Below, piece after piece: positions 7,722-52,727 of a stretch of DNA of 64,000 nucleotides. A program made the position numbers and the translations under genes. Source of the DNA: Shigella phage ESh19; sequence record ON528729. One strand, written 5' to 3'. Every line of letters starts with the position of its first letter. Within the stretch, counting starts at the first letter, position 1. The notes under the pieces are model-generated. The model had not been told where the DNA came from and searched no databases. It saw only the letters and a list, made by a program, of their open reading frames with translations.

Positions 7722-7788
7722 TTGCACTCCTATTTTGTTAAACATGCAGACAATTATACACTAACCTGCACATTTTTCAAATAAAAAA

Positions 7789-8935: not shown

Positions 8936-8985
8936 TTCAATATCTCTCTTTGTTGTTTAAAATTACTTAGTGGTTCGTATTCTAA

Positions 8986-9001
8986 GGGGCTTTTCAGCCC
9001 C
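8986..9001 (-). other. GNRA-tetraloop hairpin (GGGGCU-GAAA-AGCCCC on minus transcript) between rIIA and rIIB
   Basis: identical 16-mer recurs at 13847-13862; no U-run follows. Confidence 0.5.
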
Positions 9002-9014
9002 TGTCAAACTATTT

Positions 9015-11387: not shown

Positions 11388-11420
11388 AAGAATATCTCCT
11401 TAGTTGTCGATGTGGCAAAC

Positions 11421-11449
11421 TATATAATTTTATAGATGCCACTGTCAAG
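11421..11449 (-). promoter_or_regulatory. candidate sigma70-type promoter upstream of rIIA overlapping an inverted repeat
   Basis: minus strand TTGACA-N17-TATATA; GTGGCA/TGCCAC inverted repeat (11412-11441) spans spacer and -10. Confidence 0.4.
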
Positions 11450-11958: not shown

Positions 11959-11968
11959 AAATTAAAAA

Positions 11969-11984
11969 GGCTCCTACGGGAGCC
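11969..11984 (-). terminator. rho-independent terminator after Nampt gene (GGCUCC-CGUA-GGAGCC + U-run)
   Basis: stem-loop followed by TTTTTAATTT on minus strand. Confidence 0.6.
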
Positions 11985-11999
11985 TCTTATCATACTGTT

Positions 12000-13826
12000 T
12001 TAAAGTTGCTTGTCAATAGTATTTCGAACATCACGCAGGTTAACGTAACCATAAGGTTGCGAGTTACTAAATACCAGTTTCAAAGCACTATGACAATTGT
12101 CAATTGCACCTTCAAACTCTGCAAAGCCAAAACCATCTACAGCTACTAGCTTGTCACCATCCCACATAGGGACGACTCCACCAAAAGCAGACTTCTTAAG
12201 ACCACTGTCAGTTTTAGGGTCTTTAGCCAGCATAATTTCTTGACCATCCATCTGTGCAAGAGTTGCTTTAACAGCAAATGCAAATGTGTCACGAGTCAGG
12301 TACTGATAGGTGTATGAGCCTACACCAAACACTACGTTAGAACTTGCAAAACCTTTATCAGCAAGACGTGACAGAATCTCATTAGCCCTTTCCAGAGTGA
12401 TAGAATCACCGTAGATTAGTCCAATGTGCTCATCCAGTACTTTGTACCCTTTGGAGTTAACAGTGCCACCAAAGATGTTATACAGCGTGTGGATAGCTCC
12501 ATCAATTTCTGCTGTTAACATACGCTTCACAGTAAACTGTCCAGTTTTCTGAGCGGTAATCAGGTTGATTGTATCAATATAATCAAAATCTTCATTTTCA
12601 GCAACCATCTCATATCCTTCAGAGATTAACCAAGCAGAGAACCCAAAACCAATATCAGACATTTCACAATTCAAGATTGTGTCATGCAGATGGGTATTAT
12701 CTGGTGCAAGACCTTTCATGTGCTTGTAGAACATTGACTTAGCAGTTTCCCATTCAACGGCTTTGTAACCTGTAACAATGTGAACAGGGTCTCCAGAGTC
12801 TGGACGAATTACCAACTTACCATCACGATTCAGAATTACATTACGTAGCTCTGGCAGAATCTCTGTAACAGTACGCCAGAAGTTGTAAGTATCTGAAACA
12901 ACACTTGCAATACCAGTTGGATATACGTCTACCAGTAAATGCTCAAAGGTTTTAACCTCACCACGCCAACGTTTTGCATCCAGCAAGCTATCAGACCGCA
13001 TGATGTACTGTGAATGAATATCTTCCTCTGACAAGTCTTTCATATTCCATGAAATGTTTGCGCACATCACAGAGTGTTCAGTAGCTGGTACAGAGTTGCC
13101 GATATCACTTACTTCCATAAACTGACCATAAGAACGTTTAGCAGTGTAGACAGCAGGGAAGCTGTCAGTACCTTTAAAGCTTGTCAGGTGTCCTACTGCG
13201 TTAAACGCATCATCTGTGAAGCCAGACATGCCACGCATTGCAAAGTCATGACACTGCCAAGGTAAATGGGAGTCGTTGTCACAGGTTAAATCAGCCCATT
13301 GCTTACAAATACGTTTGTAATGCAGTGCAATAGTTGCAATCGTACAAGCTTTCCAGATTTCAGCAGAGAAAGCATCTTCAAGGTAACCAGCTACCCAATG
13401 GAATCCCTCTACAGTATTTTTGAAGACAATCATCGGGACACGCATAGGGACAATTGTACCTTCCTCTACAGAGTAGACTTCAACAGGTAGGTAACCCAAG
13501 TCATGAAGTTCTTCCCAATGTTGACGACCAATAGTATCTGCACCAAGGACACCATTCATGATTTCCAAGATTTCGTCAATGGCTTCTTTCTTATCACGTT
13601 CAAAGAACGTTGCATTCCAGTGGTCTACCAGATAGTCTTTTACAAAACGCTGAATACCAAAAGCTACAACACCATCAATCTCTAACGGAGAGTTAAACCA
13701 TTTATCTCCACGAGGTGTTAAGTTCAACATAAGATACTGTGTAGCATCTGGATACTGATAGATATGACCCGCTTTATAAGCATCTGCATTAAGACCTGCT
13801 GGTACTGCATAGATTGATTTAGTCAT
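12000..13826 (-). CDS. nadV: nicotinamide phosphoribosyltransferase-family enzyme (Nampt/NadV-like; possibly nicotinamide ADP-ribose transferase)
   Basis: blocks YKAGHIYQYP, HDFAMRG..SFKGTDS, PATEHS, VVSDTYNFW, IRPDSGDP, GVGSYTYQYLTRDT align with eukaryotic/bacterial Nampt; 608 aa, longer than canonical ~490 aa. Confidence 0.8.
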   Translation of the reverse strand: MTKSIYAVPAGLNADAYKAGHIYQYPDATQYLMLNLTPRGDKWFNSPLEIDGVVAFGIQRFVKDYLVDHWNATFFERDKKEAIDEILEIMNGVLGADTIGRQHWEELHDLGYLPVEVYSVEEGTIVPMRVPMIVFKNTVEGFHWVAGYLEDAFSAEIWKACTIATIALHYKRICKQWADLTCDNDSHLPWQCHDFAMRGMSGFTDDAFNAVGHLTSFKGTDSFPAVYTAKRSYGQFMEVSDIGNSVPATEHSVMCANISWNMKDLSEEDIHSQYIMRSDSLLDAKRWRGEVKTFEHLLVDVYPTGIASVVSDTYNFWRTVTEILPELRNVILNRDGKLVIRPDSGDPVHIVTGYKAVEWETAKSMFYKHMKGLAPDNTHLHDTILNCEMSDIGFGFSAWLISEGYEMVAENEDFDYIDTINLITAQKTGQFTVKRMLTAEIDGAIHTLYNIFGGTVNSKGYKVLDEHIGLIYGDSITLERANEILSRLADKGFASSNVVFGVGSYTYQYLTRDTFAFAVKATLAQMDGQEIMLAKDPKTDSGLKKSAFGGVVPMWDGDKLVAVDGFGFAEFEGAIDNCHSALKLVFSNSQPYGYVNLRDVRNTIDKQL

Positions 13827-13846: not shown

Positions 13847-13862
13847 GGGGCTTTTCAGCCCC
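13847..13862 (-). other. GNRA-tetraloop hairpin between Prs-like and Nampt-like genes (identical to 8986-9001)
   Basis: GGGGCTTTTCAGCCCC exact repeat. Confidence 0.5.
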
Positions 13863-28195: not shown

Positions 28196-28280
28196 TTTAA
28201 TACCTCTTTCTCAAATTAACTTTTAACTCAACTATCAAGGAGTACAATCTTACAGACTTCGTACTCCCTTGTCAAATACT

Positions 28281-42630: not shown

Positions 42631-42641
42631 ATACAAAAAAA

Positions 42642-42661
42642 GGCTCCTTTTTACGGGAGCC
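42642..42661. terminator. bidirectional terminator at convergence of plus and minus operons
   Basis: GGCTCC-TTTTTAC-GGGAGCC flanked by A7 upstream and T-rich downstream. Confidence 0.6.
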
Positions 42662-42667
42662 TTAGCA

Positions 42668-45706: not shown

Positions 45707-45722
45707 CCTCTTTCTAGGGGCT
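45707..45722 (-). other. hairpin GGGGCU-loop-AGCCCC between fibre genes
   Basis: GGGGCTGTGTAGCCCC; same stem as 8986/13847 hairpins. Confidence 0.4.
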
Positions 45723-45743
45723 GTGTAGCCCCTTATAAAATAA

Positions 45744-46919
45744 TTACGCAGTTCTCTTCCAAACATATACAACATAAGAAGGTTGCTCAATATTAAATGC
45801 TTGTCCAGCACCAAATGCACCAGTTGTACCTGAGTGAGTGTGCTCAGAAGATTGAACTGTCACAGTACCTGAGTGTCCATGTGAACCAATTGCAACGCTG
45901 TGTCCATGTGCTCCAATATACACACTGTGAGAGTGGTTACCACCAACTGAAGAGTTAACGTTGAAGGTATGTGTGTGAACCCCATCAAAGTCTGTATATG
46001 ACGCATTACCAACACCTGCATCAGCCGTTGCCGTAATAGCGTTTACACCACCCCTGTCGGAACCCCTCAATGGAATCCTGTGGCTGTGACTACCAGCACT
46101 GCTTACAGAACCATTAACGTTATGAGCGTGGCTTCCAGAGTCGTTTGTGGCCTTAGAACCATAATCAAAACTTGATGTGCTCTTAGTCCCATAGTCAAAG
46201 CTAGAAATTACTACTGTTGCATTATGGGAGTGTCCACCACCAGTTAGTAATACAGAGTGTGTGTGACTTGGAATGTTATTTTGTGTAAGTGTTACAGTAG
46301 CAGAACCAAATACTGATTCTACAGGTCTTGTATCTGTGTCATAACCAACAAGAGACCTTCCTTTAGAAACTAACTCCCAAGTACCACCACAAAGTAAATA
46401 TGTAGATGGGTTTGCAGGGTTAACTGACAAATGAATAGTACCAATTGGATAGCTATTCTGGATAGCTCTGTATAAAGCATTCACAGCTTTTGCAGTAGCG
46501 TACTTATCAGCATCTTCAGAGTAAGAGTTTGAGTATGTCCAGTTTTGAATATTAGACAAACCTACTTGAATCTTGTTAGTGTTGTGAGGGTTATTCTTGT
46601 CATTAATGTGATTTTGAATAAGGGCATTAACTTCATCACTTGATAGAATATTAAGGTTCTGTCTAGCCTCTTCAACACTAACCACGTCTGACAAGTTATT
46701 AGCAGCCACTAATTGGAGTGCGTTAACAACATTACCAAGTTCTACGTGAACCTTTGTAACACCGTGTGGGTTATTTCTTAAAGATGCGTGTGGAGCAAGT
46801 AATTGCTCAAGTGTGCATCGTTTATCCTCAATACCTTGCTTCAGGTGAAAGATATCACTTAAATCAATCGGTAATGAGGCTTGAGGCAATGCACTAATTT
46901 GAATTTCACCGACTGCCAT
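45744..46919 (-). CDS. tail fibre protein (short), paralogous C-terminal His-rich domain
   Basis: C-terminal HSH/HTH/HGH repeats and ending VWKRTA shared with 43323-45698 product. Confidence 0.7.
   Translation of the reverse strand: MAVGEIQISALPQASLPIDLSDIFHLKQGIEDKRCTLEQLLAPHASLRNNPHGVTKVHVELGNVVNALQLVAANNLSDVVSVEEARQNLNILSSDEVNALIQNHINDKNNPHNTNKIQVGLSNIQNWTYSNSYSEDADKYATAKAVNALYRAIQNSYPIGTIHLSVNPANPSTYLLCGGTWELVSKGRSLVGYDTDTRPVESVFGSATVTLTQNNIPSHTHSVLLTGGGHSHNATVVISSFDYGTKSTSSFDYGSKATNDSGSHAHNVNGSVSSAGSHSHRIPLRGSDRGGVNAITATADAGVGNASYTDFDGVHTHTFNVNSSVGGNHSHSVYIGAHGHSVAIGSHGHSGTVTVQSSEHTHSGTTGAFGAGQAFNIEQPSYVVYVWKRTA

Positions 46920-49966: not shown

Positions 49967-52727
<2,761 letters not shown>

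Follow-up and report, generated by a model that had tools for sequence, protein, structure and literature searches.

Why should the same 16-nt hairpin stand in the spacers of two unrelated gene pairs of one phage, and what would it do there? In the 64,000-nt stretch of DNA analysed here (the window), the 16-mer GGGGCTTTTCAGCCCC occurs exactly twice, at 8986-9001 between rIIA and rIIB (copy 1) and at 13847-13862 between Prs, the gene for ribose-phosphate pyrophosphokinase, and Nampt (copy 2). In 100 dinucleotide-preserving shuffles no match was obtained, i.e. the number expected by chance is 0, and the window contains no further copy, even at up to two mismatches. The original prediction of an identical element in these two gene pairs is thus exact at both coordinates. 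A search of the window for the more general pattern GGGGCT-N3-14-AGCCCC yielded three matches, compared to 0 expected. The third match, GGGGCTGTGTAGCCCC, is located between two tail-fibre genes at 45717-45732 (copy 3); a stem had been proposed there at 45707-45722, which exists but lies 10 nt away from that position. All three loci belong to minus-strand operons, and the minus strand is the sense strand in each case. The window comes from a Felix O1-like, Mooglevirus-like myovirus of the Ounavirinae. Its nearest relatives are members of Mooglevirus, with 96-98% identity to Citrobacter phage BSwM KMM4 and Shigella phages Sf13-Sf19.

On the sense strand, copies 1 and 2 fold as GGGGCU-GAAA-AGCCCC, as had been proposed, and copy 3 folds as AGGGGCU-ACAC-AGCCCCU. 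At each copy the hairpin is the dominant local structure, with about -11 to -13 kcal/mol. An A-U closing pair widens copy 1 to 8985-9002, and an extra pair widens copy 3 to 45716-45733. The spacers have lengths of 79 nt (copy 1; rIIA stop 9015, rIIB ATG 8935), 44 nt (copy 2; Prs stop 13871, Nampt ATG 13826) and 45 nt (copy 3; tail-fibre genes at 45744 and about 45698), and all three hairpins begin 8-13 nt past the upstream stop codon. A ribosome halted at this stop codon would cover the 5' arm, and whether the hairpin forms could thus be coupled to translation of the upstream gene. In total, eight loci of the window carry a G4...C4 hairpin, and all of them are found in the non-coding ~7%, as judged by a crude gene call with a coding share of 93%. 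The first 8 nt after the stem contain 3, 3 and 1 U for copies 1, 2 and 3, compared to 5-7 of 8 at the canonical terminators of the window, in agreement with the earlier observation that no U-run follows the stem. Tails with 1-3 U in 8 nt make poor intrinsic terminators for E. coli RNA polymerase. A scan of the whole window against Rfam gave no match at the gathering score.

The surroundings of copy 1 show a feature that had been overlooked. A promoter scan detected a predicted sigma-70-type promoter of rIIB at 8979-9007 (minus strand), consisting of the -35 box TTGACA (9007-9002), a 17-nt spacer (9001-8985) and the -10 box TAGAAT (8984-8979). TTGACA-N17-TAGAAT matches the sigma-70 consensus in 11 of 12 positions, and copy 1 occupies 16 of the 17 spacer positions. 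The sense-strand sequence between rIIA and rIIB is TAA-AAATAGT-TTGACA-GGGGCTGAAAAGCCCCT-TAGAAT-...-ATG. The start site of this promoter would be near 8972, ~7 nt after 8979. Because copy 1 lies inside the promoter spacer, RNA begun there would lack the hairpin, and only read-through RNA from rIIA would form it.

The rIIB site was compared in about 40 relatives (28 viral-contig and 13 metagenome sequences), which cover Mooglevirus, Suspvirus and Felixounavirus, plus a lineage with 64% rIIB identity. The -35 box, both stem arms and the -10 box, which is either TAGAAT or TAAAAT, are almost invariant; the loop, the remaining spacer and the 5' leader differ among the same sequences. Variants that weaken the sense-strand stem are two cases of AACCCC and one metagenome case of GGGGAT. 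The latter occurs in the metagenome contig OIWQ01002648.1 (L123; 99% rIIB identity), where one stem pair is broken and the promoter boxes are kept. In the Felixounavirus AYO145A, the orthologous site is annotated as a promoter (NC_028825, 2298-2327). The exact promoter/hairpin composite is found in IMG/VR once per genome, at the orthologous locus only and in Felix O1-sized contigs only.

At copy 2, which begins 8 nt past the Prs stop codon and ends 20 nt before the ATG of Nampt, no promoter boxes were found. Copy 3 is flanked by the degenerate boxes TTTATA and TAGAAA. Across genomes, a -35-like hexamer directly precedes both copies (CTTTA or TTTATA at copy 2, TTTATA or TTTACA at copy 3). A usable -10 box is absent at copies 2 and 3, which thus fit a promoter/hairpin composite only partially. 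The next gene follows 20-25 nt downstream of these copies with no promoter between, so that any termination must be partial. Relatives keep both copies at the orthologous positions, with an unchanged stem and a freely varying loop. The tails of the Felixounavirus orthologues contain U4 (AUUUUG at copy 2, UUUUAAG at copy 3), compared to ACUUUG and UAGAAAG in the window, and in AYO145A (NC_028825) both orthologues are annotated as rho-independent terminators by means of WebGeSTer (copy 2, 84904-84924; copy 3, 52226-52245). The original statement that the hairpin is not a terminator is correct in that no U-tract follows these hairpins in the window, but it is too strong in view of these orthologues.

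Copy 2 is dispensable. In 6 of 28 relatives a gene for an HNH homing endonuclease is found in its place, and in Erwinia phage phiEa104 it is missing, the Prs and Nampt genes being 13 nt apart. The HNH gene between Prs and Nampt codes for 163 aa in phiSUSP1 (L031, 985-1500), is also present in L033, L035-L037 and L039, and is an exact swap for the copy-2 spacer. A gene conversion between copies 1 and 2 was considered as well and is unsupported: the upstream sequence GAATAAAAA shared by the two copies is not conserved in Sf13.

Related stems had also been proposed for the cassettes of the early operon, and they are indeed present there. Four early cassettes were located on the minus strand, at 574-657 (hairpin 617-644, -10 box TAAGAT), 1171-1262 (hairpin 1219-1247, GGGGCUUAA...UUAAGCCCC), 1521-1611 (hairpin 1567-1595) and 1993-2076 (hairpin 2036-2064). 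All four have the same order of elements, namely a stop codon, AAAGTGC, TTTACA, T, a GGGG(C/U)U...AAGCCCC hairpin, the conserved leader AACAATCCTAAACTGGAGAA and an ATG. The boxes are TTTACA-17-TAAGAT or TTTACA-17-TATCTT, and the hairpin encloses the -10 box. The cassettes are ~90 nt long and lie between small early genes, and a direct repeat, AAAG(T/A)GCTTTAC, flanks the hairpin. Sf13 contains more than 10 such cassettes at 28-35 kb (28.2-35.4 kb), which are 80-93% alike. In the early region, the window and Sf13 are collinear; no cassette-bounded indel was found between the two, and the extra BLAST pieces are cross-matches between cassettes. In the annotation of phage Mordin, a 14-nt piece of the cassette bears the label repeat_region and no assigned function. 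Read in the minus-strand sense, the divergent intergenic region ~2458-2700, where the early operon begins, contains two strong promoter-like sites (TTGACT..., TTGACTTCATAAATCCAGTCTTATAGTAT) and the stretch CCAGCCCCACCATCCCCTCTTACTCCCCTTCCTCCC, which is unusually C-rich for a genome with 39% G+C.

Hairpins are associated with most of the strong intergenic promoters of the window, whose spacer or -10 box lies within an inverted repeat. Examples on the minus strand are TTGACA-18-TATAGT at 11419-11448, with the spacer and the -10 box within the inverted repeat GUGGCA...UGCCAC, and TTGACA-17-TAAGAT at 28247-28275, with the -10 box enclosed by the inverted repeat AAGGGAGUAC...GUACUCCUU; a further strong promoter with its spacer or -10 box in an inverted repeat is found at 7753-7780. 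Strong intergenic promoters fold better than intragenic look-alikes (-9.8 vs -5.2 kcal/mol, p=0.015; Mann-Whitney, n=7 intergenic and 41 intragenic). A different layout is present at 11965-12016 (minus strand), where the promoter TTGACA-16-TATGAT (12016-11989) is directly followed by a U-run terminator hairpin (11988-11965), and this layout is kept in 28 of 28 relatives. RNA begun at such a -10 box would start within the 5' arm and escape termination, and read-through RNA would terminate. Promoter-like -10 boxes 1-3 nt upstream of a U-run terminator hairpin were observed at 12016-11965, 15619-15568 and 20032-19982 (minus strand). A separate hairpin, AAGGCTCC-N8-GGAGCCTT at 42640-42663, lies between the convergent genes for thymidylate synthase (plus strand) and holin (minus strand), has T/A runs on both sides, and is probably a bidirectional terminator.

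Is it the sequence of the stem or its structure that is maintained? Within Mooglevirus, Suspvirus, Felixounavirus and the L135 lineage, no compensated change of the stem was found, and selection on sequence and selection on structure are consequently inseparable in these lineages. In these genomes, the canonical terminators that follow rIIB and Nampt show the same invariance in their stems. Invariance as a sign of sequence-specific recognition was discarded on this ground, as it does not discriminate. At greater distance, the hairpin structure survives sequence change. The rIIA/rIIB junction of phiEa104 contains GGGCUG-GAAA-CAGCCC, with three pairs changed on both sides; L029 possesses a different stem of 8-9 bp, which overlaps its -10 box; and L040 and L042 retain a bulged stem in a shifted register. 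Moreover, in five variants of site 3, C-to-U changes lead to G.U pairs, which form on the sense strand only. With regard to RNA processing in phiEa104, the protein P104_00070 (L062, 4761-5273) is annotated as 'predicted T4 endoribonuclease RegB'. A link to a RegB-type endoribonuclease was rejected, since the Pfam match of this protein is to an SLT transglycosylase domain and not to RegB; window proteins near rIIB gave no Pfam match.

The loop behaves differently from the stem. Site 1 shows four loop forms, and sites 2 and 3 show ten or more; among the forms are UUGA, UCAA, UAAA, UGAA and UUAU, and GNRA loops are confined to the Mooglevirus and Suspvirus clade, L135 and phiEa104. The loop varies freely, often as its own reverse complement, so that the GNRA loop named in the original description is not the selected feature and was rejected as the key property of the element. 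Pairs of reverse-complement loops in close relatives with fixed stems and flanks are TTGA/TCAA, TAAA/TTTA, TTCA/TGAA, TTAT/ATAA and TGAT/ATCA; the pair TACG/CGTA was seen at the Nampt terminator. These pairs were collected at window positions 8990-8997, 13851-13858, 45721-45728 and 11975-11978 and at the orthologous positions in L001-L090. The reverse-complement loops suggest frequent loop inversion at perfect inverted repeats, via template switching or cruciform recombination.

Taken together, we consider it most plausible, with a probability of roughly 0.6, that the 16-mer forms the stem-loop within a family of composite promoter/hairpin signals, which would attenuate the upstream RNA or protect 3' ends. 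The layout of this family would be a G-run...C-run hairpin set against sigma-70 boxes in a short spacer after a stop codon. At copy 1, the hairpin may damp or end the transcription of rIIA or cap the 3' end of the rIIA RNA, and the promoter would then restart transcription for rIIB. Copies 2 and 3 may act as leaky intrinsic terminators or pause sites, or as barriers to 3'-exonucleases, just upstream of the ribosome-binding site of the next gene; expression of the downstream gene would thereby be lowered or uncoupled relative to that of the upstream gene. For these two copies, leaky termination or pausing is favoured as judged from their sequences, and protection against 3'-exonucleases is a rival that is not mutually exclusive with it. 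The analysis shows the anatomy of the sequence, its non-random placement and conservation, the retention of the structure when the sequence changes, and the family to which it belongs; promoter activity, as well as attenuation or 3'-end protection, is what we infer from sequence. The original proposal of a repeatedly used RNA element stands in that the copies are placed non-randomly between cistrons and that attenuation or stability at the RNA level is still the best reading, but it missed that copy 1 lies in the spacer of a conserved, predicted promoter.

Several other explanations have to be weighed against this composite signal. The hairpin could be purely post-transcriptional and without effect on RNA polymerase, blocking 3'-to-5' exonucleases and stabilising the mRNAs of rIIA, Prs and the first tail-fibre gene. 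Endonucleolytic cleavage in the AU-rich spacer might come first, or the hairpin itself might be cleaved. This explanation overlaps with the preferred one and differs from it only in the attenuation component. It would account for a stable hairpin that lacks a U-run in the window genome and always stands 8-13 nt past a stop codon, and for a structure that is retained in diverged relatives; however, the U4 tails of the Felixounavirus orthologues are typical of weak terminators, and a match to an Rfam family is lacking, which leaves it rather unlikely. The version in which RNase III is the nuclease, as originally suggested, is implausible. Cleavage by RNase III requires double-stranded RNA of about 20 bp, or roughly two turns of the helix, and a stem of 6-7 bp without extension rules out such a site. 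The hairpins might alternatively be read on the other strand, as terminators of antisense (plus-strand) transcription, for which the complement of the A-rich post-stop sequence would provide the U-rich tract. A plus-strand scan indeed flags 13847-13862 followed by TAAAGTTTTT as terminator-like, but copies 1 and 3 have only a distant U-run or none, neither genes nor strong promoters of the plus strand are found nearby, and the G.U variants favour the sense strand, so that an antisense terminator is extremely improbable.

A role at the DNA level is conceivable too. With half-sites separated by about one turn of the helix, the palindrome AGGGGCT-N4-AGCCCCT might be an operator for a dimeric phage or host protein; bound between -35 and -10 at copy 1, this protein would turn the rIIB promoter off. 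The half-sites are invariant around four free central base pairs at three unlinked loci and in all Mooglevirus, Suspvirus and Felixounavirus genomes, and relatives encode a Cro/CI-type HTH protein. Yet Kolesnikvirus and L029 retain the hairpin but not the sequence, the G.U variants preserve the RNA structure and break the DNA palindrome, the G4/C4 stems of the early cassettes with their loops of ~20 nt misfit a fixed geometry, there is no promoter to regulate at copies 2 and 3, and canonical terminator stems are just as invariant. Hence, we regard an operator as very improbable. Nearly as improbable is an origin of the copies from a mobile or recombinogenic promoter/stem-loop cassette that has decayed and now does little at copies 2 and 3; it would have spread by recombination as proposed for the PeSL cassettes discussed below and would persist mainly since a perfect palindrome is hard to lose. 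The -35-like hexamer directly before every copy (TTTACA, TTTATA or CTTTA), the clade-specific occurrence of copy 2 with a homing-endonuclease gene in its place in some relatives, and the loop flips, which show activity of the palindromes at the DNA level, speak for such an origin. Against it, cassette-bounded indels are lacking between the window and Sf13, and the strict conservation of the stems at three loci, where adjacent spacer bases change, argues for purifying selection. It is also improbable, if somewhat less so, that the invariant GGGGCU/AGCCCC stem beside the -35-like hexamer is the recognition site of a phage-encoded RNA- or DNA-binding factor. Three core loci that are not linked to one another show this pairing of stem and hexamer, as do the early cassettes of all Mooglevirus, Suspvirus and Felixounavirus genomes. 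Candidates for such a factor would be an antiterminator or a temporal switch, which would choose between stop and passage of transcription at these sites; if true, the stem would represent a regulatory code that spans the genome, in phages with an unexplained temporal control.

Five candidate promoters are listed in the genome paper of Felix O1, and the rIIB site is not among them; according to the same paper, neither the read-through of the many terminators nor temporal control is understood (PMC3185647). The papers searched contained neither transcript maps of Felix O1-like phages nor descriptions of promoter/stem-loop composites in Ounavirinae. The fusion of most promoters of this group to hairpins offers a concrete, testable map of transcription units in Felix O1-like phages, which takes in the rIIB promoter as well as the promoter-less copies at Prs-Nampt and at the tail-fibre genes. 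Copies 2 and 3 resemble leaky terminators or stability elements placed between cistrons. The hairpin is real and conserved, yet it is an ordinary kind of phage regulatory signal.

How does this signal compare with known systems? Like intrinsic terminators and attenuators within operons, the copies form a GC-rich hairpin of 6-7 bp right after a stop codon, and the AYO145A orthologues of copies 2 and 3 are annotated accordingly. They differ in that the U-rich tract of a canonical terminator is absent in the window genome (1-3 U in 8 nt) and is represented by 4 U only in the Felixounavirus orthologues of copies 2 and 3, and in that the downstream gene follows 20-50 nt later and lacks its own promoter at copies 2 and 3. 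Short, very stable intercistronic hairpins that can shield upstream RNA from 3' exonucleases are a second point of comparison. REP elements are 3' stem-loop barriers to decay in polycistronic mRNAs, and Tuerk et al. in 1988 reportedly described stable C(UUCG)G tetraloop hairpins in intercistronic regions of T4. In contrast to the T4 hairpins, the loop of the window hairpins is not conserved, which means that no special tetraloop is required.

The closest resemblance is to the PeSL (promoter-early stem-loop) cassettes of the T4-like phages RB49, phi1, PST and nt-1 (Arbiol et al. 2010, PMC2839356; Comeau et al. 2014, PMC4122927). The stem-loop of RB49 and phi1 is mostly located between -35 and -10 or over the -10 box; a stem-loop lowered the expression of a downstream lacZ to nearly the same extent as a strong terminator, and very high expression was obtained from a cassette (PMC2839356; PMC4122927). 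Shared features are an AT-rich stretch with the stop codon, a -35 box similar to that of sigma-70 promoters, a G-run...C-run stem-loop between the boxes or over the -10 box, a Shine-Dalgarno sequence and an ATG, as well as the presence of many copies among small early genes of unknown function and the proposed role, which is to attenuate upstream transcription and then to restart it. When the elements are compared individually, boxes ~17 bp apart in an intergenic spacer are found at copy 1 and in the early cassettes but not at copies 2 and 3. The stem-loop lies in the spacer at copy 1, and the cassette hairpins enclose the -10 box. The AT-rich upstream stop, the downstream Shine-Dalgarno sequence and start codon, and the many early copies are all present. 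In contrast to PeSL-bearing phages, the window phage belongs to the Ounavirinae, has a genome of about 88 kb and is not T4-like. The sequences are not homologous, the three short hairpins are located in conserved core operons instead of hyperplastic regions, and copies 2 and 3 lack a -10 box. By analogy, the best-supported assignment of the window composites is nevertheless to signals of the PeSL type. No new mechanism is revealed, but the design of the promoter/stem-loop cassette would thus extend beyond the T4-like phages.
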